30,601 nt of DNA from a virus. Lineage: Duplodnaviria > Caudoviricetes. The stretch covers positions 1 to 30,601 of IMG/VR virus record IMGVR_UViG_3300032239_000359; one strand, 5' to 3'. The notes below the pieces were generated by a model. That model was not told the origin of the DNA, searched no databases, and worked only from the letters and a program-made list of their open reading frames with translations. Numbering within the stretch: position 1 is the stretch's first letter; each line of letters starts with the position of its first letter. Positions 1 to 30,601 of this stretch are shown one piece after another. Position numbers and translations under genes: made by a program.

Positions 1-240
1 CGTAGGTCCTGTAACAGTTGAAGCTGCACCTGTTGCTCCAGTTGGACCCGTAGGTCCTGTAACAGTTGAAGCAGCACCTGTGGCTCCAGTTGGACCTGTA
101 GGTCCTGTAACAGTTGAAGCTGCACCTGTTGCTCCAGTTGGACCTGTAGGTCCTGTAACAGTTGAAGCAGCACCTGTTGCTCCAGTTGGACCCGTAGGTC
201 CTGTAACCGTACTTGCCGCTCCCGTTGCACCTGTTGGACC
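1..240. repeat. About five 48-bp tandem repeats encoding [16 protein letters not shown]
   Basis: gtaggtcctgtaac recurs at about 2, 50, 98, 146 and 194. Confidence 0.85.
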
Positions 241-1656
241 TGTAGGTCCTGTTGCGCCAGCAGTTCCAGTTGCACCCGTAGGTCCTGTAGGTCCTTGAAT
301 GCCTTGAATTCCTTGAATGCCTTGCGGTCCTGTTGCACCAACGGCTCCTGTTGCACCTGTAGCACCTGTAGGTCCAGTTGCACCCGTTGCTCCGGCTGAT
401 CCTGTTGCACCTGTAGGTCCAGTTGCACCAACTGCGCCCGCAGCTCCAGTAGCGCCTGTAGGTCCTGTTGCACCTGCCGCACCTGCTGCACCTGTGGCAC
501 CTGTAGGACCAGTTACGGTTGAAGCTGCACCTGTAGGTCCTGTTGCACCTGTGGCTCCAGTTGGACCTGTTGGACCCACACCGCCTGATTGCGCAAATGT
601 GATGTTATCTGTGCCGATAATGATGTAACCATTGGTGCCAGTGCCAGTATTATTTTGAATCCAGTTAGTAGCACCATTGACAGTTCCATTAACCACAAAA
701 AGAAAATCGCCATACTCGACTTGACCTGCAACTGAGTTGTTAAAATCTGTTGCACGAGTTAAAACATAGGGAGTTATGAAAGAACCAACGGTGCTTACAT
801 AATAAATACCATTTTGAGTTTGTGTTGTTTGATTCTTAACCAATAAACGATCATTGACTGCAAGAGAAAAACCATCAATTGAAATTGCACCATTAGATGT
901 TGCAGTAAGTTTTGCACCAATACCATAACCGCCACCTGCATCGGCAGTTCCTGCAGTATATGTTGTTGCAAGATTTGCAGTTGTCGCAGAGTGAGCAGAT
1001 GAATGTGCATTTACAGATGAAATCGGACCTGTCGGTCCTGTTGCACCTGTAGGTCCAGTTGCACCTGTAGGTCCTGTTGCGCCTTGTGATGCTGCCGCAC
1101 CTGTAGGTCCTGTTGCACCTGTCGGTCCTGTTGCACCTGTATTTCCAGTAGCACCTGTAGGACCAGTAACAGTTGAAGCTGCTCCTGTAGGTCCTGTAGG
1201 TCCTGTTGAACCTTGAGAACCTGTAGCACCTGTAGGTCCTGTTGCACCTTGAATACCCTGGATGCCTTGAATACCTTGAATACCTTGTGGACCTGTTGGA
1301 CCTATTGCACCTGCTGATCCTGTTGCACCTGTAGGTCCAGTTGCACCTGTATTTCCAGTAGCACCTGTAGGACCTGTAACAGTTGAAGCTGCACCTGTAG
1401 GTCCAGTAGCACCCGTCGGTCCTGTGGGTCCTGTTGTTAAAGAGATTGTGGCAATAGTTGTATCAACTGCATCAAGGCGAGCCTTAACCGATGCTTTTGA
1501 TCCCTTTGGATTAGTCCCAAGTTCGCCTTCAATAGCCTCAATCGCATCATTTGTATTTGCGTGTTGAGTCGCGTGGGGAACTGTTGCTGAATCTAAATAA
1601 TCTGTCGCAGTTGGATTGCTAAAATTATCAATTCCGCCGGGATAATTAGTTGCCAC
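1..1656 (-). CDS. Collagen-like (Gly-X-Thr) fibre/decoration protein, 3' end runs off the window
   Basis: Not in the ORF track because it has no stop in the window. GTG at 1656 with SD AGGAGA (1661-1666). Reads [23 protein letters not shown]..., then long GPTGATG/GIQ repeats, interrupted at about 590-1015 by a globular segment with the fibre-type motif [17 protein letters not shown]. Confidence 0.85.
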
Positions 1657-2628: not shown

Positions 2629-3972
2629 CTAGAAGCCTGAAGGTGCGACTGTACCAGTACCACTTATAGCACTGACTGCCTTCGCGTAACGATGAGCTAG
2701 TGCCATATATCCGTAAACTTGGAAGCGAACTGTTAGGTTTGCTGACAAGACATCTGGAAGAACACGAGTCTTAACGCCTGATTCAAATAGGTATGAATCT
2801 GAGAACTTACCAACAAGAATAGGAGACTGATTTGTGGCAGCTCCGTATGTCTTTGGAAGTGTTGCATCAACATAAACAGGTACTCCGTGGATTGTTCCAA
2901 CGAGTCCTGCTGGCGCTCCCGGAGCAGTAACTACACCGTTTGCATTGAATGGACCTGCGCCGACAGGCACGATGATTGGACGTGAATTTCCATCTGTGCT
3001 TGAAGCGAACCAGTACCACATTGATGGGTGCATAACAATTGCTTCAACTGCCTGGTAGCGGTTTGTTACAACCTTGCTAATGGCCTTTGAGATTGCTTGC
3101 AATCCGTTTACTGCAGTTGGTGTTGTTTCAGTCCAAGTTGTTGGGATACCGTTTGTAGTATCTGCACCAAGGTTAATGAAACCCTTGAGTGTTCCTGAAG
3201 TTCCATCGCCGTTACCTGTAACTGCGGTGTTAAGTGCAAGTGCGTAATCCTTCATCAAATCACCGAATACTAGACGATCAAGACCGCCTGCAAGTGGTGA
3301 TTGTTCCACTAATTGAATGGACACATTTTCATATCCAGAGATAGTCCGGACTGGTGCCGTGACCGTACTAGTGACCATATCGCGTGTGTTTGTAGCAGAG
3401 TTATCAGATGACTGGAACGCAACCTGTGTACCTGTAGTAACTGCCGGGATATTTATACTGTCGGTTCCTAATGGGAGTGCCATCGTTGTCGCTAAATCTG
3501 CGGTCACCCTTGCAGCTCTTGCGAATTCAGCATACTCATTGATTAGGTAAATTGGCGGCACAAAATCGCCGCCGGCTGTGTCTGTGCGTGAGATGTCGCG
3601 TGTTTCAACTGCAACTTCGCTCTGATGGCGGTTTAGGCGCTCCCAAGATGTTGCATCGTTGCGCATTGTTGCGTTAATCATATCGCGAACGAATGAGTTG
3701 CGACCATCTTTGTCGTATGTCATTGCTTCGCGTGTAACAGTTGTTCCACCAACGAATGGCTTTACACCTGATTCTTTGCGTGATTCAGCAATTGCTGCTG
3801 AACGTGCTTCTACTGCTTCTGACTTTGCAATGCGCTCATCGAGTGCTGCAATTTCATCGTGCTTTGCGGAGACAGTATCTAGGATTTCAGTTGTTACATC
3901 GCCTGCAAGCAGAGTATCTGCTTCGACTGCAACTGCATCCCGCTGCTCCTTGAGCTTTGATGTCAAAGACAT
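2629..3972 (-). CDS. Major capsid protein, HK97 fold with N-terminal coiled-coil delta domain
   Basis: 447 aa. Helical N-terminus, AGGDFVPP, GNGDGTSGTLKG, GTIHGVPVYV, GKFSD motifs. Follows portal and protease. Confidence 0.93.
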   Translation of the reverse strand: MSLTSKLKEQRDAVAVEADTLLAGDVTTEILDTVSAKHDEIAALDERIAKSEAVEARSAAIAESRKESGVKPFVGGTTVTREAMTYDKDGRNSFVRDMINATMRNDATSWERLNRHQSEVAVETRDISRTDTAGGDFVPPIYLINEYAEFARAARVTADLATTMALPLGTDSINIPAVTTGTQVAFQSSDNSATNTRDMVTSTVTAPVRTISGYENVSIQLVEQSPLAGGLDRLVFGDLMKDYALALNTAVTGNGDGTSGTLKGFINLGADTTNGIPTTWTETTPTAVNGLQAISKAISKVVTNRYQAVEAIVMHPSMWYWFASSTDGNSRPIIVPVGAGPFNANGVVTAPGAPAGLVGTIHGVPVYVDATLPKTYGAATNQSPILVGKFSDSYLFESGVKTRVLPDVLSANLTVRFQVYGYMALAHRYAKAVSAISGTGTVAPSGF

Positions 3973-4047: not shown

Positions 4048-5403
4048 CTACTTGCGCAGTTTGCGCTGAGCATTTTTCAAAATGAGCAACTTCTTGCGCA
4101 ATTCTAAATCTTCGTTTTCTTCTTCTGCACTACGCATACCGACAGTTGTTGAGTCATATGCTGGCAATGTGACTACTGAAACCTCATACAAATGCAAATC
4201 TGTAAGTGTGCGCAGTCCTTCTTCACGAATTTCCCCACCTGGCTCAACTGTAAAAGCAAATGACATCTTGTCCACATCGCCACGGCGAAGGGCAGATGCT
4301 AGTTCTTGAGCGCGTGGATTACTTGGATCAAGTTGTGCATCCATACGCAGACCTGTTGCATCTTCGCTCAGTGAAAGTGTGCCTGACTTGGTTGAAGCAA
4401 GCGGTAACTGCTCCATATCGTGATTGATAAGCAAGAACACTGGATTATCGGTAGCAAGAGTGCGTTTGAAGGCACCTGGAGCAATAACTTCGCGGAAATT
4501 CAATCCTGTAGCCTCTGAATTAAAGGTTGCAGCATATCCACCGATGCGTAATGTGCCATCTGTTGTATCCATTGTGCGTACTTCGGCAGTCATTGTAATG
4601 CGCTCTGCGGTTGCAAGTGCTTTACGCGCTTCAACTAATTCGTTATCTGCAGACTTCATTTCCATATCGGCTCCTTCTTCTGCCACTTCTTCAGGGCTTT
4701 CGGTTGTCAAATCTGTTGGTACAACTTCCATTCCAAGTGAGGATGAGAGCTGCCAGCGCCACATTTGATGTTTATCTAGGCGCTCGGCTAGGAAATTTGC
4801 AATACCTTGCTCGTTATATTCAGTTGCGCATTCAAAAGCATCTGCAATTCCACGGATAACAACATCGTTAGCACCAAGCAAGTCAATTGCTAAAGTGCGA
4901 GCATCTGTTGATAAGTCACCATCTGAAAGTGTGCGCAGTTCCATAAACTGTGTGAATTGGAATGGAGCCTGAACACCAATCTTGCGGATGTTTTCAGCAA
5001 GTGGATCAATGGAGCCATAAACATCTTCATAAATTGCATTAAACAATGCGTGATACTCAGCAAAGTCTGTTCCGATTACATTCCAATGAGCGCCGTGAGC
5101 GCGAAAGTAGAAGGTAATTGTGTCGGCGAGAAGCTCATTGAGTTCTTCACTAAGGTCGGGAGTTCCCTCGGTTATTGCCATTGCATCCTCCTCGGATGTA
5201 GTAACGACAGATGCACGTTTAGCAACCTTGTCGCAGATGTTGAATGCCCACATTCGACCATTACTAGCAGGCCAACTATCACGGATAGTTGCAACCTGCT
5301 CTAATGTCAAGGGCTTATTGTTACGGATTTCTTCTGCTACAGGTAGCAAAATCTTTTCAGCTTCTACTAAAACAGTTGGTGGAACACGATATGTCTCAGC
5401 CAT
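4048..5403 (-). CDS. Dps/ferritin-like domain fused to HK97-family prohead protease
   Basis: aa ~83-223: HWNVIGTDFAEYHALF...DPLAENIRKIG...HQMWRWQL (Dps). aa ~270-425: GYAATFN, FREVIAPGAF, LINHD (H328), KMSFAF (S381), LYEVSVVTLPAY (protease). Confidence 0.9.
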   Translation of the reverse strand: MAETYRVPPTVLVEAEKILLPVAEEIRNNKPLTLEQVATIRDSWPASNGRMWAFNICDKVAKRASVVTTSEEDAMAITEGTPDLSEELNELLADTITFYFRAHGAHWNVIGTDFAEYHALFNAIYEDVYGSIDPLAENIRKIGVQAPFQFTQFMELRTLSDGDLSTDARTLAIDLLGANDVVIRGIADAFECATEYNEQGIANFLAERLDKHQMWRWQLSSSLGMEVVPTDLTTESPEEVAEEGADMEMKSADNELVEARKALATAERITMTAEVRTMDTTDGTLRIGGYAATFNSEATGLNFREVIAPGAFKRTLATDNPVFLLINHDMEQLPLASTKSGTLSLSEDATGLRMDAQLDPSNPRAQELASALRRGDVDKMSFAFTVEPGGEIREEGLRTLTDLHLYEVSVVTLPAYDSTTVGMRSAEEENEDLELRKKLLILKNAQRKLRK

Positions 5404-6620
5404 TATTCAATAACTCCCATCAATGGGATTGAAGTATCTGAATCAACGCCCAAAGAAGAAACATCGCCACCGGCGGTGACTGTTCCTGCAAGTGCCTGAT
5501 TAAATACATCTCCACCATCATAAGGTTCTAAGCCTTCAATTTGACGAACTTCATTTGGTGTGCGAGCGCCAATCTGAACATTCAACATATTGACTTTAGC
5601 TCGTGTCAAAGCATCAGTGCGAAGCAATGATGATGTATCAAAGGCGATGTCGGTGCCATCAGGTAGAACTCTTGACAAACCAATTTCAACTCGACGAATC
5701 CAAGGTGTAATTGTGTGAGTCAAGAAATTTAATGATGCTTGTTCAACATTCTGATAGGTCTGTGTGTCTCCACCTGAAGCAAGAATGAGGTGAGCGGGAA
5801 TACGAAACACGCGGGCAATATCTCTAATAAGTTGCTCACGAGTTTCAATCATCTGTTGGTCGGCAGCCGATGTTGTAATTGGCTTCCATTTAAGTCCATC
5901 GGATAGAACTGCAGGACGGCGATGGCGCTTGTGAGTTGCTTCCCAAGTATTGCGAATAATTTGAGCCTGCTCATTAGTAAGTTTCTGATCAGTCTCAAGA
6001 ATAGACGAAGGAGTTGCACCTTCTGCATAGAACTGCCCTAAGTGACGGTCCATTGCCATTGCAAGACCGATAAGATTACGAGATTGAATCAAAGGTGAAA
6101 CACCAACAAGTGATTGTGGCGGTGTAAACCAACGCATATGAATCAAATCTTCGGCAGGAATCTCATTACCAAGGTGCAAATACTTGCGCCCTGTCTGATC
6201 ACCTGTAGGCAATACTTGCATTTGATAGACGTGCAATGGTACTAAACCAATTATTTCACCCTTTTTATCACGGTCAAGGTGAACATAAGCATTGCCGTGC
6301 AAAGCCATTGAAGCAACAATTTGATGCACTAATTCGTATTCATTAGAGTCAATGTCGGGTTGCTTAAGGATATATGGCAAATCTGTTGCTACTCGCTTGC
6401 CATTTTCAATTTTGAAAGTGCGAAGTGGCATTGATGCTACTGAATCTGCAAGCAATGAAATTGCGCTAATGACTGCAGAGATACCAAAGGCACTCCATTC
6501 ATCAATGCGTTCTCCTGCTGCAGATGTAATGTTGGTTTGTCCATAAAGTTGAGACAAAGGTGCAACGTAGTTGTTGTATTGAGGGTAGCGACCTGTTAGG
6601 CCACGTTTAATGATGCTCAT
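5403..6620 (-). CDS. HK97-family portal protein
   Basis: LHGNAYV, GVSPL, IARVFRIPAHLI, YQNVEQ, TPNEVRQIEGL motifs. Confidence 0.95.
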   Translation of the reverse strand: MSIIKRGLTGRYPQYNNYVAPLSQLYGQTNITSAAGERIDEWSAFGISAVISAISLLADSVASMPLRTFKIENGKRVATDLPYILKQPDIDSNEYELVHQIVASMALHGNAYVHLDRDKKGEIIGLVPLHVYQMQVLPTGDQTGRKYLHLGNEIPAEDLIHMRWFTPPQSLVGVSPLIQSRNLIGLAMAMDRHLGQFYAEGATPSSILETDQKLTNEQAQIIRNTWEATHKRHRRPAVLSDGLKWKPITTSAADQQMIETREQLIRDIARVFRIPAHLILASGGDTQTYQNVEQASLNFLTHTITPWIRRVEIGLSRVLPDGTDIAFDTSSLLRTDALTRAKVNMLNVQIGARTPNEVRQIEGLEPYDGGDVFNQALAGTVTAGGDVSSLGVDSDTSIPLMGVIE

Positions 6621-6760
6621 TCAGCCGCCAAATAGGAGCCAGCAATTACTAACAAGCCAGCAACGATAAGGGAGATGCCCCAACTGAAAACAATTCCAAC
6701 ACCAACAGAAATTAAAGCTGCGCCTATCATTTCTGCAACGGTTGTGATTTTCTCACGCAT
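6617..6760 (-). CDS. Small two-TM membrane protein between terminase and portal
   Basis: Likely start ATG 6760 (MREKITTVAEMIG...) with SD GAGGA. Hydrophobic sequence in a common position. Confidence 0.7.
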   Translation of the reverse strand: MREKITTVAEMIGAALISVGVGIVFSWGISLIVAGLLVIAGSYLAAE

Positions 6761-8303
6761 TAGGTTCCTCCATATTCCAAGGGTCAAAGATTGCGGGTAA
6801 GTACCCACCTTGAGATTGCCACCAAGCAGCTCTCTCTAAAGCCATTACTGCAGACACCGCCAAGTCAATACGGCGGGTTGAACCTCGCTTCTCTTTTGCT
6901 AAGCGAGAACCTCGTTGATCTACACGAAGGGTTGCATTCCCAACGTGCCTTGCCATTTTTACATCACCATCGTGAGTGATACTGCGGTTCACAACTGCTT
7001 CATAAAAGCGAGTTGTTGCAGGTGTCATACGAGATGCAGTTTGTGGGAATGTAACAACTGGCAAACCTTCTTCTTCTAACACCTGAAAAGTTCTAGCCCA
7101 TCGGTATGGGTCGCAAGCAATTTCCATTACTTCGTATTTCTTGCAAGCATTGCGCAAGGCATCTTCAACATCCATCACTGGCACTTGCCAATCGGCTCCT
7201 GCTTCGTCAGGTTTTTCCCATACTGCCAACGGCATAATATGAGGAACTTCATCAATTGATACTGCCACAATAGCCGTGCAGTCACCATTGAAAGAACCGT
7301 CAAAGCCAATCACAACTTTAGTGCCTTCTTCAATTTCTTTTTCATCGGCGATTGAATCCCAAGCACCGTGAGGTAGCCAGGCATCGGATGTAGATGTCCA
7401 AACATTAAGACGTTTGGTTTTGAATTCTGCTTCGGGTGTTCTTAATACTGCAGATGCAAAATCATCGGCTGAGCAAATATCACCAAAGCCGGGATTTGCA
7501 GATTCCCAAGTGGTTGGCAATCTAAAATCATCTTCGGGATTTGCTTCCCACCAAGAAAAGAAAAACGAAGGATCATCAACTTCCCCCGATGTAACTCGTT
7601 TGCCGTATTCATAGAGTGAATAGCAAATTGAATCTTTGCCACTGACATCTGTTTTAACACCGGCAGTTGTAATTGCCACCATAAGAGGTTCAGTTCTTGC
7701 ACCCATTGCAAGTGACATAACATCAAAGAGTTCACGATTAGGTTGCGCGTGTAACTCATCCATTGCAACGAAAGTAGGAGAAAGACCTTCCTTGGTAAAT
7801 GCTTCGGCAGAGAGCGCCCGATAGACCGAACCGGTCTTTGGGTTATAGATTGCATCTCGATATACATCAAGCAACTCTGATAGTTCAGGCTGCATCTCTA
7901 CCATTCGTTTGGCAGTGCCGAACACAATTTTTGCTTGTTCTTTTTCGGCTGCACACGAATATGTTTCCCCGCCTTGTGGTCCTAGCACTAAATGTTCAAG
8001 AGCAAGTGCAGACAACCAAGCAGATTTTCCTTGCTTGCGGGGCAGGCCGATAAGAGCAACTTTATGTTTTAACTTGCCATCGGCTTTGACTGCAAACAAA
8101 TTCTTTGTTAATTCTTTTTGCCAATCACGAAAGACTAAAGGCTCGCCAGCATTTCCTGCAACGGAATCTTTTGTAATCTTGCAAAGAGCTTCGGCAAAAT
8201 CAATTGTATTCTCGCCACGACTTCGTTTGTAATCGGCTGCTGAAACTTCGCTCAGATAGCGCGGAGGCCATCCTTTAATTTCTTTCTTTCCCCCGTTTGC
8301 CAT
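6753..8303 (-). CDS. terL: Terminase large subunit
   Basis: Walker A PRKQGKS, Walker B VAMDELH, ITTAG, nuclease motifs GFDGSFNGD and RIDLAVS. Confidence 0.96.
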   Translation of the reverse strand: MANGGKKEIKGWPPRYLSEVSAADYKRSRGENTIDFAEALCKITKDSVAGNAGEPLVFRDWQKELTKNLFAVKADGKLKHKVALIGLPRKQGKSAWLSALALEHLVLGPQGGETYSCAAEKEQAKIVFGTAKRMVEMQPELSELLDVYRDAIYNPKTGSVYRALSAEAFTKEGLSPTFVAMDELHAQPNRELFDVMSLAMGARTEPLMVAITTAGVKTDVSGKDSICYSLYEYGKRVTSGEVDDPSFFFSWWEANPEDDFRLPTTWESANPGFGDICSADDFASAVLRTPEAEFKTKRLNVWTSTSDAWLPHGAWDSIADEKEIEEGTKVVIGFDGSFNGDCTAIVAVSIDEVPHIMPLAVWEKPDEAGADWQVPVMDVEDALRNACKKYEVMEIACDPYRWARTFQVLEEEGLPVVTFPQTASRMTPATTRFYEAVVNRSITHDGDVKMARHVGNATLRVDQRGSRLAKEKRGSTRRIDLAVSAVMALERAAWWQSQGGYLPAIFDPWNMEEPNA

Positions 8304-8305
8304 TG

Positions 8306-8752
8306 TTACCTGTTCTGTCGTTTAGCAAGCAATTGATCAAGTGCGCTGACACGTTTTACTTCAGCAACACCTAACTTGGAACGCGATACAGGGTCAAAGC
8401 CAAGAGCTGAGAGTGAGTCGGTGTAAGACTTATTGATTTGCACTAAAGCGCGAAGGTCGGCGGCTTCAAGAGTGGCGTGGTATTTGGCGCGGGCAGTTGC
8501 CAATGTATCCGCAAGGCGAGCTGCGTTCTCAATCGCGTTGCGATCTGACGAAGGCGAGAGCCAAGTAATCGCCGCATCCCAAGCGCGATTCCATAATTCA
8601 GTGCCATTCTCACCAAGATTGGCAGGTGGCGCAGGTGTCTCGTGCGCCATCGGTAACACGCTAACAATTGAAAGTTCAGGAAGTTTTCTTTTTCCGGGAT
8701 TACCCGTTGCTCTTTTAATTTCAATTGGCTTTGGAGGTCTGCCCGCAGTCAT
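8306..8752 (-). CDS. terS: Terminase small subunit (P27-like)
   Basis: GRPPKP..K...GNPGKR N-terminus and LGFDPVSRSKL. Immediately upstream of terL. Confidence 0.9.
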   Translation of the reverse strand: MTAGRPPKPIEIKRATGNPGKRKLPELSIVSVLPMAHETPAPPANLGENGTELWNRAWDAAITWLSPSSDRNAIENAARLADTLATARAKYHATLEAADLRALVQINKSYTDSLSALGFDPVSRSKLGVAEVKRVSALDQLLAKRQNR

Positions 8753-13497: not shown

Positions 13498-13887
13498 TTA
13501 TGGTAATGAAATTCTAAATGCGTGTTTTGTGTGAATCATCGTGACAATCTTTGAAACATTTGTGTTGTTCTCAAAATCAGTAGTCTGAGGCAGGTGCATA
13601 GTAATCCATTCGGGCTTCAAATGAATCAAATCAAAGAAATAGATATTCTCAGGTGTTGAGCAGACATACCAAGGCGATAATCCTAACTCCTGCCCCATCG
13701 TCATCATTGCATCGTATTTGGCTTGCTCTAGTATCAGCTCGTCATAATGTGTGCGCCGGCATTTGAGTTCAAAATAAGCATTAGTGGCAAGTGATACACA
13801 ATCCCACTTAGAATAAGGATGCGGGCTTGGAATTAGATCAGGCATTATTGTTGCCTTGAGATACATAAACAGAGTCTCTTCTGTCAA
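13498..13887 (-). CDS. PD-(D/E)xK-like nuclease-fold protein
   Basis: KWDC...YFELKCR. Likely TTG start at 13887 overlapping the mom stop, SD AAGGA. Confidence 0.6.
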   Translation of the reverse strand: MTEETLFMYLKATIMPDLIPSPHPYSKWDCVSLATNAYFELKCRRTHYDELILEQAKYDAMMTMGQELGLSPWYVCSTPENIYFFDLIHLKPEWITMHLPQTTDFENNTNVSKIVTMIHTKHAFRISLP

Positions 13888-14549
13888 TTGTTTTCCTTTG
13901 GATAAGGCTCTTGTTGCCATATACAAACAATTTTTTTATCAAGCAAATATAAATAACGATGCTTGCGCGATCTAGGTATCCATTTACCTTCAAATCCTTT
14001 AGATTTTCCTCTTGTTAATTTATGACCATCTGCAAATATAAAATCATTTTTTTGAGGAGATAAACCGTGATAAGTAAAATTTGCAGCTTGATAAACCGCA
14101 CCTATGTGACGAGATGAATCTGCATAACTTATGACGGCTTTTATGTTCAATCGTTTTAACTCACGCAAAGAACGTGCTATTAAATATGAACCATAGTTTG
14201 CACCGTTCAAAAATGGATTAAGCACTAATCGGCTCATTTCTAAAAATTCAGGATAATTGCCTCTTGGTAATCCAAAAGCTGAAGTTGCAGAATTAGGAAC
14301 CGACAAAGGCGAATAAACAACTGCACCTTGTAATTCATTTTCAATATAAAGCCCAAAAGAATACTGACCAATAAAACGTTTCGCGCCTAAATAATGAAAA
14401 GATTTTACCAAATCATATGCTTCACGGTATTTAATGCGTTGAACATTTTGGAGCGATGAAGTCGGAATTGAACCGCTATCTGATAGCTGGAACGCCATCT
14501 GTGTTGCCATTACACCATCATCGCATATCTTGTTAATCATAACACTCAC
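13884..14549 (-). CDS. mom: Mom-like (GNAT-fold) DNA adenine modification enzyme
   Basis: HYL, FGLY...GAVVY, LEMSRLVL, SYLIARSL, VISYADS..H.GAVYQAANF.Y.G, KHRYLY. GTG start overlaps the upstream stop (GTGA). Confidence 0.8.
   Translation of the reverse strand: MSVMINKICDDGVMATQMAFQLSDSGSIPTSSLQNVQRIKYREAYDLVKSFHYLGAKRFIGQYSFGLYIENELQGAVVYSPLSVPNSATSAFGLPRGNYPEFLEMSRLVLNPFLNGANYGSYLIARSLRELKRLNIKAVISYADSSRHIGAVYQAANFTYHGLSPQKNDFIFADGHKLTRGKSKGFEGKWIPRSRKHRYLYLLDKKIVCIWQQEPYPKENN
14449..14524 (-). tRNA. Non-canonical tRNA-Gly(UCC)-like element embedded in the mom-like CDS
   Basis: Acceptor stem GCGATGA/TCATCGC + T + CCA. D arm GTGT-AATGGCA-ACAC. Anticodon arm GATGG-CGTTCCAG-CTATC. T arm AGCGG-TTCAATT-CCGACT with a bulge. 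76 nt. Confidence 0.8.
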
Positions 14550-18203: not shown

Positions 18204-18740
18204 CTAAATCTTTTTTTGTACCTCAATTTGAAAAGGCGCACAAGTATTGATGTCGTACTTGGCTGAGACATCTAAGGCTTGCAAGATTTCATCCTTGCCC
18301 ATTTGGTCTTTGATTGAAGCCATATAACCCATCCCATAGGGTGAGCCTGAGCCGATACCGTAAATGCCATCGGATGATTGCGAAATGCTCAGCTCATCGC
18401 CAATTTCAAAGATATTGCCGTTGAAAACCAGCAAGTATGAATAAGAAGCTGCATCTTTGGTGTAGTCATAGCCCTGCGCCTTAAAGATTGCAATAATGCT
18501 AGGAATTATCTTTCGACCCACAAACTTCACCGGGTCGGTGCCATCATAGGCAGGTGGCTTCCATAGGTACATAAGGATGTCACCTGGGCGGCAATCACCT
18601 GAGACTGCCAGCAAATATCTATTGATCTTGACAATCTTGGGAGTGCTAGGGCTAAGGATGCGCTTGTCGCCGTCTGTAATCTGACTGTCAGCCCCAAGGA
18701 TGGCAAAGTCTACCCCTTGATAGCCAATGATTGTCGTCAC
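18204..18740 (-). CDS. HslV/proteasome-beta-like Ntn threonine protease
   Basis: GTG at 18740 gives (M)TTIIG...GADSQIT...KI...GIGSGS...D..T, the N-terminal Thr nucleophile pattern. Confidence 0.85.
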   Translation of the reverse strand: MTTIIGYQGVDFAILGADSQITDGDKRILSPSTPKIVKINRYLLAVSGDCRPGDILMYLWKPPAYDGTDPVKFVGRKIIPSIIAIFKAQGYDYTKDAASYSYLLVFNGNIFEIGDELSISQSSDGIYGIGSGSPYGMGYMASIKDQMGKDEILQALDVSAKYDINTCAPFQIEVQKKI

Positions 18741-18932
18741 GGCTCTATGGTAACGCCAAAGGCGTGAAAACCCGCGACATTCCCCAATTACGCAGGCTTT
18801 CACGCCAAGCGTGAGCCTACGACACGCAGAAAGAATTTGTCAAAATTTGCCCTTTTGGTATGGACAAAGGGTGGACAGATGTTAAAGTTATCTCATTGGG
18901 AAACGAACGGTTCCCGAGAAAAGGATAGCAAA
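18741..18932. promoter_or_regulatory. Divergent control region
   Basis: Strand switch point. Long imperfect inverted repeat ggcgtgaaa...tttcacgcc (about 18761-18806). Plus-strand TGGACA-16nt-TAAAGT (18861-18888). Minus-strand TACCAT 6 nt before GTG 18740. Confidence 0.5.
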
Positions 18933-29474: not shown

Positions 29475-29671
29475 TATCTACCTCTCATCATTGGTGTTGC
29501 TATTGTGCGCAAAATCGCATTTCCTCGATTTGAAAAATAATTATATGTGACAAGTGGTTCATTGTATTTGACCTGTGGCTCGTTGTATCTATAATGAGAA
29601 ATGGTTGCATCTGTAGATATGCGAGCAAAAATTTGAGCAGTTGCAACATTTCTTGGTTTCATATTAACCAT
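29474..29671 (-). CDS. Hypothetical protein
   Basis: 65 aa with YNEP repeats, overlapping both neighbours. Confidence 0.55.
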   Translation of the reverse strand: MVNMKPRNVATAQIFARISTDATISHYRYNEPQVKYNEPLVTYNYFSNRGNAILRTIATPMMRGR

Positions 29672-30601
29672 TTATTGCTCCTTTGTAATGCTCTAAGTTT
29701 TCTTTCAAACGCTCAATCCACGGTGCAAGTTCAAGCGCCTTTTGCCCCTGCTCTAACGCCTCTTTGTAATTGCCTAAATTGTACGCCGATATTGCAATTA
29801 AATCGTGTGGCAGGTATCCCCAAGCATCTGATTCTACCAAGTATTCAAGCGGTTGCTGAGTTATTTTCAAGGCAGAATAAGCAATTGCATAACAATCTAG
29901 CCATTGACCTTTTGAATAGTAATACTCAGCCAAATCAACTCGTGGTTCACGACTAATTGGTGATTCTGCTATTGCTCGCAACAACCAACTTTCCTGATTA
30001 TCGTGATCCATCTTTGCCAAATAACGCATTGAAGCAGCTCGTTCAGGTTTCCATACTGCCTTCGGTAAGGCTAAATGGCGGTTAAATTGTGCGATTGCCT
30101 CGGTGTAGTGATTGTTAAAAAATAGTTCGCGAGCATAATAAAAAGCATTTCGGTCATTATCAGGATCCTCTTGAATTGCAAGGCGCAACAATGGGTAATA
30201 CTGACCACGAGATTTGCTTTCATCGGGATGGTGATGAATTTCCAAATCAATCCACGCCTGAGATTCTTCACCGCTTGGTGTCAATGTCTCGTGAACAGGA
30301 TGCTTCCAACGATAACCTGTCCGAGCGTGAATCTTATCCCCACCGTATGTAAGCCCCGTAGAGCCGTCGGGATTCCAGCTCCAAGTATATTTGTACCGTG
30401 GGCGAGTTATGTCCTCAGAAGTGGCTTCTAGGGCTTTACGCCAGCCTTCTTGCAACTGCTCATCCATATCTAAAGCGATACACATATCCACATCGCTAGG
30501 CAAGGCAGCAAGAGCTGCGTTGCGGGCATCGTCAAAGCGCCACGGCTTGATTGCTATCTTGATGACATTGATGCCCAAATTTTCGGCGTACTTGACTGTC
30601 A
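29664..30601 (-). CDS. GT2 glycosyltransferase with C-terminal TPR repeats, 5' end outside the window
   Basis: Frame is open to the edge (TVKYAENLGINV). FDDARNAAL, LDMDE, W..PVHE, HHPD..KSR..Y, then TPR-like helices. Confidence 0.88.
   Translation of the reverse strand, partial: TVKYAENLGINVIKIAIKPWRFDDARNAALAALPSDVDMCIALDMDEQLQEGWRKALEATSEDITRPRYKYTWSWNPDGSTGLTYGGDKIHARTGYRWKHPVHETLTPSGEESQAWIDLEIHHHPDESKSRGQYYPLLRLAIQEDPDNDRNAFYYARELFFNNHYTEAIAQFNRHLALPKAVWKPERAASMRYLAKMDHDNQESWLLRAIAESPISREPRVDLAEYYYSKGQWLDCYAIAYSALKITQQPLEYLVESDAWGYLPHDLIAISAYNLGNYKEALEQGQKALELAPWIERLKENLEHYKGAING

Follow-up and report, generated by a model that had tools for sequence, protein, structure and literature searches.

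A Dps mini-ferritin domain within the prohead protease polyprotein of a tailed phage: architecture, relatives and possible roles

The prohead protease of phage HK97 is specific for lysine, and fusions to this protease are encapsidated through a C-terminal segment; the study of HK97 protease fusions is reportedly that of Duda from 2013. Nested genes for protease and scaffold are known in phages lambda (C/Nu3) and Mu (I/Z). Encapsulins carry ferritin-like cargo in HK97-fold shells. The iron sites of Dps proteins form between subunits, and the Dps 12-mer has a size of about 9 nm.

The HK97 prohead pathway is described in the available parts of PMC10275583 and PMC4235213, and the available part of PMC9958956 presents the T4 prohead protease as an enzyme built into the prohead, where it trims proteins that are kept inside the head. 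The fusion described here would be a variant of the head-packaged accessory proteins, represented by T4 IPI-III and Alt (PMC9958956) and by the MuF and portal fusions (PMC5512222, in part), whose extra domains enter the head, where the prohead protease trims them, or are fused to head proteins. It differs from them in that the protease itself would be the anchor, with a predicted cage-forming iron protein as the cargo. Free-standing Dps or ferritin auxiliary genes of phages (PMC6802176 and PMC8008677, both in part; phrog_3636) likewise encode a ferritin-like domain and are read there as a protection against oxidative stress. Ferritin, present in 114 phages, is the commonest oxidative-stress domain of a large freshwater phage set (Table S5 of PMC6802176), and Dps has been reported in gut phages (PMC8008677). 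In contrast to those genes, the domain studied here is part of a morphogenesis polyprotein. The main texts of PMC6802176 and PMC8008677, as far as available, mention no fusion to head proteins (in PMC6802176 both “protease” and “fused” have 0 occurrences), and “Dps” has 0 occurrences in the available main text of PMC5512222. In the openly available literature, to which most subscription papers do not belong, no paper on a Dps-prohead protease fusion was found; the fusion is real and widespread, and apparently undescribed in print.

The protease gene and its genomic setting

The window, i.e. the whole stretch of DNA analysed, is a virus record of 30,601 bases with a CheckV completeness of 93% and about 44% G+C. 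Its DNA was found in sequencing runs that are for the most part metagenomes of aquatic, freshwater, wastewater or biofilm origin. All recognisable genes lie on the minus strand and encode the terminases, portal, protease, HK97-fold capsid protein, tail tube, tape measure, a primase-polymerase and WhiB. The WhiB gene suggests an actinobacterial host. In one actinobacterial order, which is not necessarily that of the host, PF00210 is present in 64 of 151 genomes. The features of the locus are as follows (a slash marks a predicted cleavage site):

4048..5403, minus strand: prohead protease polyprotein of 451 aa, composed of module A, Dps, acidic linker, S78 protease and C-terminal helix; ORF open throughout
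5212..5403, minus strand: module A in its short form (aa 1-64), a folded helical domain (pLDDT about 87) ending at the predicted site R63/A64
5179..5193, minus strand: internal Shine-Dalgarno sequence and in-frame ATG (M75), where a 377-aa form with Dps and protease is predicted to start
4726..5163, minus strand: Dps mini-ferritin domain (aa 81-226) with H106, W107, H118, D133 and E137, by profile and model
4624..4725, minus strand: acidic low-confidence linker (aa 227-260, net charge -9) with K250/S251, by charge and full-length model
4663..4676, minus strand: second internal Shine-Dalgarno sequence and ATG (M247), where a 205-aa form with the protease alone is predicted to start
4123..4587, minus strand: Peptidase S78 domain (aa 273-427) with H328 and S381, flanked by R276/T277 and R424/S425
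4051..4131, minus strand: C-terminal helix (aa 425-451; helix 426-450 in the model), acidic then basic, a candidate capsid-binding tail
5403..6620, minus strand: HK97-type portal gene, by profile matches; its stop codon overlaps the protease ATG
2629..3972, minus strand: HK97-fold major capsid protein with an N-terminal extension of about 125 aa, at the end of which lies the predicted cleavage site R125/D126
6753..8752, minus strand: terminase large and small subunits, by profile matches

The fusion ORF is located between the portal and major capsid genes. An earlier note on this DNA had read it as a complete HK97 protease joined through an acidic linker to a domain with the Dps signature, and all three elements were recovered together with every residue named for them. 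The Pfam profile Ferritin matches aa 86-223 (E 4e-14; 53 bits at a cut-off of 24.5); Peptidase_S78 matches aa 273-427 (E 8e-41), TIGR01543 scores 118 bits against a cut-off of 59, and the catalytic H328 and S381 are invariant in 58 sequences. In the full-length model (pTM 0.40), module A, Dps and the protease form three folded units connected by low-confidence linkers (66-81, 233-254 and 414-431). The C-terminal helix may bind the capsid, a role taken over from HK97.

No stop codon or frameshift, either of which had been named as a refutation of the fusion, was found between the domains, and the ORF is unbroken in contigs of two sequencing runs. The spanning contig of run X1 is identical to the window and is possibly its source; that of run X2 differs by 15 substitutions and 0 gaps, the 13 substitutions listed inside the ORF being all synonymous. 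Contigs of runs X4 and X5 cover the gene only piecewise. The survey of viral databases that the earlier note had proposed retrieved, with the Dps region as query, 639 proteins of 248-790 aa; among the best 120 listed, Dps and protease occur in one chain in 113, and seven have no protease match, one of these being a tandem Dps. A frameshift or assembly artefact is ruled out by the intact spanning contigs and the 113 fused relatives.

The gene shares with HK97 gp4-type proteases (Peptidase S78, TIGR01543) the portal-protease-capsid order, the catalytic His and Ser and the N-terminal extension (delta-domain) of the capsid protein. It differs from them in possessing a 270-aa modular arm with a swappable slot, predicted nested starts and a predicted specificity for Arg instead of Lys. 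While an encapsulin operon comprises a shell gene without portal, terminase or tail, the window contains a portal, both terminases, a tail tube and a tape measure; the terminases indicate a true packaging phage.

Several other elements were noted in the window. A long collagen-like (G-X-T) ORF at 1-1656 (minus strand) runs off the contig end. A Mom-like DNA-modification gene, an HslV/proteasome-like peptidase and two glycosyltransferase genes are found near head or tail genes (13884-14549, 18204-18803, 1726-2415 and 29664-30578), and a tRNA-like element with an unreadable anticodon loop lies at 14449-14524 (minus strand).

The Dps domain and its phage relatives

The AlphaFold2 model of aa 81-226 (pLDDT 95) is a four-helix bundle with a short BC helix. 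It superimposes on solved Dps structures with TM scores of 0.89-0.92 (0.91 and an rmsd of 1.3 A for 3iq1), and the closest solved relatives of the domain are Dps proteins (8ff9, E 3e-19). With cellular Dps of Pseudomonas aeruginosa (PA0962, 8ff9), Vibrio cholerae (3iq1) and Listeria (1qgh/2iy4) it shares the fold including the BC helix, the His-His-Asp-Glu ligands and the adjacent Trp. It differs from them in being fused to a protease, in forming a separate clade with 20-29% identity, in its acidity and missing basic tail, in changed second-shell and C-D loop residues, and in falling below the NCBIfam cut-offs for the cellular Dps equivalogs (38 vs 170, 34 vs 114 and 27 vs 300 bits).

The ligands H106, H118, D133 and E137 align with invariant columns of 76 cellular Dps sequences. 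All four are intact in 120/120 HK97-fused, 54/55 otherwise fused and 120/120 free phage domains (294/295), as well as in all 103 long and all 43 short cluster representatives. An invariance of at least 99% in the 295 domains is reached by only 16 of the 145 columns, the four ligands included. Median pairwise dN/dS in 46 genes is 0.10 for Dps and 0.15 for the protease. Judged by these comparisons, the phage Dps domain is under purifying selection.

The Asn reported at the place of Listeria D47 (in the numbering of the Listeria ligands) is indeed present as N122, but it is not special to this protein, as the site varies across the clade: Glu is found there in 64 of 76 cellular sequences versus 24 of 103 long and 9 of 43 short phage domains. 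Compared with cellular Dps, the clade carries the substitutions R138 to N and D203 to N. The second-shell acidic residue of cellular Dps is thus replaced (N122), as is an acidic residue of the C-D loop (N203, where 71 of 76 cellular sequences have Asp; E198 is kept), and the activity may be weaker or different. The changed residues are common to free clade members and are therefore not a decay caused by fusion. The clade has conserved residues of its own, namely D127, K141, Q199, D210 and W215.

A role of the N-terminal lysines of Dps in DNA binding is described in the available part of PMC9250271. The phage domain has a net charge of -15, acidic flanks and no basic tail of the E. coli type, which makes DNA condensation unlikely, and likewise a protection of DNA by direct binding; protection would be conceivable only through removal of iron.

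Fused and free phage domains form one branch apart from cellular Dps (SH-like 95) in a FastTree tree of 117 rows and 149 columns, the deep forks of which are poorly resolved. Two patterns of the clade match about 1,900 IMG/VR stretches, while GenBank phages contain no clade member (best identity 26.5%). In GTDB (30 of 64 parts; best 80 of 574 matches), the four best matches are on short contigs with phage-like genes and the others are at most 39% identical, by which a recent host-derived Dps is ruled out within these parts. UniProt holds such long proteins under the names Dps or prohead protease, and eight of the 12 best viral structure matches have at least 290 aa.

A profile search over representatives at 50% identity gave 281 matches at E<=1e-30; 146 new ones were listed, 103 of them longer than 250 aa. 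These 103 comprise 32 with S78, three with S78_2, one with a Mu-type protease, one with MuF and 15 more with a PHROG head family. A head or packaging family is therefore present on 52 of the 103, and modules found on those recur in 29 of the other 51, in a census whose query of protease-fused domains biases it towards fusions. No tail or replication family was detected among the 103. Dps is N-terminal, C-terminal or tandem on different protease families, and also occurs in head polyproteins of 1,700 aa. Free-standing clade Dps genes are found in 62 of 83 loci; for a part of these loci (59 ORFs), about 11 adjoin portal, capsid or virion genes and the neighbours of the rest are mostly unknown ORFs.

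Further arrangements were observed in the collected loci and proteins. Free clade Dps genes directly adjoin portal or capsid genes in L200, L204, L205, L208, L216, L219, L227, L231, L234 and L237. Tandem Dps-Dps with linkers of 16-22 aa, possibly single-chain ferroxidase dimers, is present in the protease polyproteins P0002, P0122 and P0123. HAD phosphatase, AAA_33 kinase and zeta-toxin-like domains lie beside Dps in the head polyproteins P0320, P0353, P0370, P0338, P0319 and P0359. In L188, L211, L212 and L215, Dps is followed by a Cys-rich stretch and small modules, with no recognised protease in the ORF.

A modular arm with predicted internal starts and cleavage sites

The earlier note mentions neither the folded module A (aa 1-65) nor the internal starts, nor that the arm is modular and flanked by Arg. 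According to profiles built from the matches, the order of the arm is fixed: module A, Dps, an optional module C (about 125 aa), an optional Tudor domain (PF11160) and the protease. Module A exists in a long form of about 107 aa (phrog_2859) and a short form of about 62 aa, the latter being a deleted version of the former (hhalign probability 96.6%). In cultured phages from GenBank, module A occurs within capsid, portal or protease proteins; the proteins with module C mostly bear the annotation maturation protease, MuF-like fusion or portal, and the remainder are hypothetical.

In order to avoid selection for Dps, loci were picked by their portal (best 80 of 239); 13 with the protease gene cut off were left out, and the remaining 67 include near-duplicates. 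The slot behind module A holds Dps in 45 of these proteases and another module, hairpin E, in 22, with both in 0 and neither in 0; as E was defined from the 22 Dps-less proteins, the absence of a “neither” class partly follows from that definition. Of the 67, 33 have module C and 48 have Tudor, and 13 architectures occur among them. The shuffling of several domains within a single polypeptide, encoded amid packaging genes, is shared with the polyvalent head-linked proteins (cf. the available part of PMC5512222).

Hairpin E is a hydrophobic, Ala-rich two-helix module of about 55 aa, of no known family, with invariant Asp and Gln positions and without His ligands. It gave no Atlas match at >=0.9 and none among GenBank phages, and its interpretation as a degenerate half-Dps was rejected because the two are unrelated by hhalign (0.6%). 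Loci with E are L033, L036-L044, L051-L057 and L104-L156 (e.g. L036:3063-3248). In two independent checks, no Dps-bearing protein of the collected set matched E, and in 53 loci picked by E, a set overlapping the portal-picked one, E is inside the protease in 53/53 and Dps in 0/53. On the portal tree (45 rows), well-supported branches force at least three slot swaps, one of them among phages whose portals are more than 90% identical to that of the window.

Module A is also found outside the protease. In L084:3413-4195 and L085:3440-4222, an ORF of its own, located between the portal and protease genes, encodes module A joined to an ADP-ribosyltransferase (PF03496, E 6e-19). This is a natural split, as the A-ADP-ribosyltransferase ORF stops and E-Tudor-protease is an ORF of its own; such a fusion hints at a role of A in directing proteins to the head. 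A portal-like protein with module A at its C-terminus was seen in L027 (minus strand 6288-8471, reverse numbering) and L197:425-2275. The major capsid gene of relatives contains small group I introns (L049:3062-3257 and L056:5455-5653; Rfam RF00028, two scanned), and inserts resembling them are present in L048, L064, L066, L088 and L021, at more than one site of the capsid gene.

The Shine-Dalgarno sequences preceding M75 (nt 5181) and M247 (nt 4665) are strong and surpass that of M1. A Shine-Dalgarno/ATG pair precedes Dps in 26 of 29 unique linkers versus an expected 8.4 when the linkers are recoded synonymously (maximum 15 in 400), and precedes the protease in 18 of 46 versus 3.3 expected. 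The control linkers before C (0/25) and before Tudor (0/35) have no start signal, and the frequency before E (6/14 versus 4.6 expected) is not significant. Since dS to most close relatives is about 0.7-1.0, the signal is probably maintained and not passively inherited. The conserved pairs at M75 and M247 predict nested products, for which lambda C/Nu3 and Mu I/Z provide a likeness in their in-frame internal starts and shorter products with a shared C-terminus. The difference is that the short forms predicted here retain the protease and lose the cargo modules, whereas in lambda and Mu the protease is dropped.

Arg stands at a fixed distance before C (22/22), Tudor (22/25), the protease start (60/60) and the protease end (65/65) in 66 representatives of less than 80% identity, and is mostly followed by Ser or Ala. 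Linkers with an Arg site number 153 of 177 versus 61 expected from shuffles, a contrast that is not a p-value because the linker sequences are related. The junction of the capsid extension reads E[TSL]R/D in 61 of 67 relatives. In the window, the predicted sites are R63, R276 and R424 of the protease, with K250 where many relatives have Arg, and R125 of the capsid protein. On this pattern, the module borders carry Arg sites resembling the predicted cleavage site of the capsid protein.

Some observations qualify the prediction. Of the 29 linkers from Dps to the protease, only 19 contain an Arg site, R276 lies within a predicted strand of the full-length model, an upstream Arg site is present in only two of nine distant Arg-type proteases, and Arg-Ser/Ala pairs inside Dps (88 versus 52 expected) mean that Dps could be nicked. 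In other protease families the borders are Lys- or Ala-type by eye, with small tests. Motif enrichment over whole proteins is modest: 1.49 for the Arg-type, 1.49 for one Lys-type group, 1.10 for two others and 1.64 for the giant (Ala-type) proteins. A flank test across families, covering 18 of 103 proteins that are not independent, counted 22 Arg vs 9 Lys motifs in 12 Arg-type and 0 vs 6 in three Lys-type proteins. A co-variation of cut site and protease family may be taken as a lead.

Possible roles of the fused Dps domain

The explanation preferred here, with a probability of about 0.5, is that Dps is an iron-binding head cargo which is co-packaged and then released, the protease being its likely tether. 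The loading of Dps into the virion, as the earlier note had supposed, is well supported as regards the prohead, if indirectly, by the repeated fusions to head proteins and the invariant ligands. Translation from M1, M75 and M247 would yield nested products of 451, 377 and 205 aa; the protease and tail are present in each of them, Dps in two. The products from M1 and M75 would co-assemble inside the prohead, as HK97- and T4-type proteases do. Arg-specific cleavage within the arm (R63, R276 or K250, R424), alongside that of the capsid extension at R125, would free an acidic Dps piece of about 21-24 kDa. The freed Dps would form at least dimers, because the iron site is inter-subunit, and probably 12-mers too large to leave the shell. 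The oligomer would then stay in the head, trap iron and lower Fenton damage to the packaged DNA; as 22 of 67 close relatives are without Dps, iron trapping would be dispensable. Oligomerisation of Dps may also cluster the proteases, hairpin E doing the same job in Dps-less relatives.

A broader version is put forward tentatively, with the odds leaning against it. In abundant lake phages, the prohead protease would serve as a multi-start platform from which cargo can be cleaved, and a working mini-ferritin cage would exist inside the mature virion. This would be an encapsulin-like iron compartment in a true virus, acquired repeatedly by several protease families and protecting the particles in sunlit, peroxide-rich water, and the virions would be small iron carriers. 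The likeness to encapsulins is the proposed ferroxidase-type protein inside an HK97-fold shell; the differences are a DNA-packaging phage with portal, terminase and tail, loading by protease fusion instead of a cargo-loading peptide, and a four-helix Dps as the cargo.

It is rather unlikely that the slot is mainly structural, with Dps and E as exchangeable hubs of oligomerisation through which the proteases and their capsid-binding tails are clustered while the head assembles, the metal mostly holding the Dps oligomer together and the piece possibly being destroyed at maturation. The slot census speaks for such hubs: exactly one of Dps or E is present in 67/67 proteases, whereas C and Tudor come and go, E-picked loci never have Dps, the swaps on the portal tree are well supported, and E is small, hydrophobic, unrelated to Dps and without His ligands. 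The scaffold option of the earlier note gains support from the same Dps-or-hairpin alternation (45 vs 22). However, E was defined from Dps-less proteins and exclusivity could come from recombination between shared flanks; free-standing members with the same invariant ligands are left unexplained, and the capsid protein has an N-terminal extension of its own.

An action of Dps in the infected cell, late in infection, is less probable again. The head operon would then be a strong expression slot only, and the form entering the head would be degraded or be the protease-only product of M247, for which the strong internal start offers a Dps-free source. Free-standing clade members are common, and the available part of PMC6802176 reads ferritin in these lake phages as a defence of the host against ROS. 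On the other side, there is no stop between Dps and protease in the 45 Dps-bearing portal-picked genes, the fusion partners of known role are all head proteins, and release would need the protease, whose activity is normally confined to the prohead (for T4, PMC9958956, in part).

Least probable is an ejection of the freed Dps with the DNA into the next host, where it would buffer iron or blunt a redox-linked defence early in infection like T4 IPI or Alt, since a folded Dps oligomer of 12-mer size can pass the tail tube only if it unfolds, tens of subunits count for little in a whole cell, and neither a PADLOC match nor a known anti-defence link was found, even though head polyproteins carry phosphatase, P-loop kinase and zeta-toxin-like domains of types acting in cells, module A is joined to an ADP-ribosyltransferase in two loci, and MuF and portal fusions are read as injected in the available part of PMC5512222. 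Of the roles proposed in the earlier note, prohead loading and scaffolding are strengthened, DNA protection by way of binding is unlikely and delivery to the host has no direct support. The four explanations, i.e. head cargo, structural hub, action in the cell and ejection, are not fully exclusive.

If the cargo explanation is true, a metal-handling cage would exist inside a phage head, as a living parallel to the loading of encapsulin cargo, and nature would have provided a design by which folded proteins can be loaded into HK97-type shells. A handle for separating the iron role from the assembly role is offered by the swap between Dps and hairpin and by the start signals at silent sites. Many “ferritin genes” of lake phages would be virion cargo and not host stress genes, if the loading is true; and should many such ferritin domains be head cargo, they would serve the survival or assembly of the particle, and counts of auxiliary genes would have to be revised.
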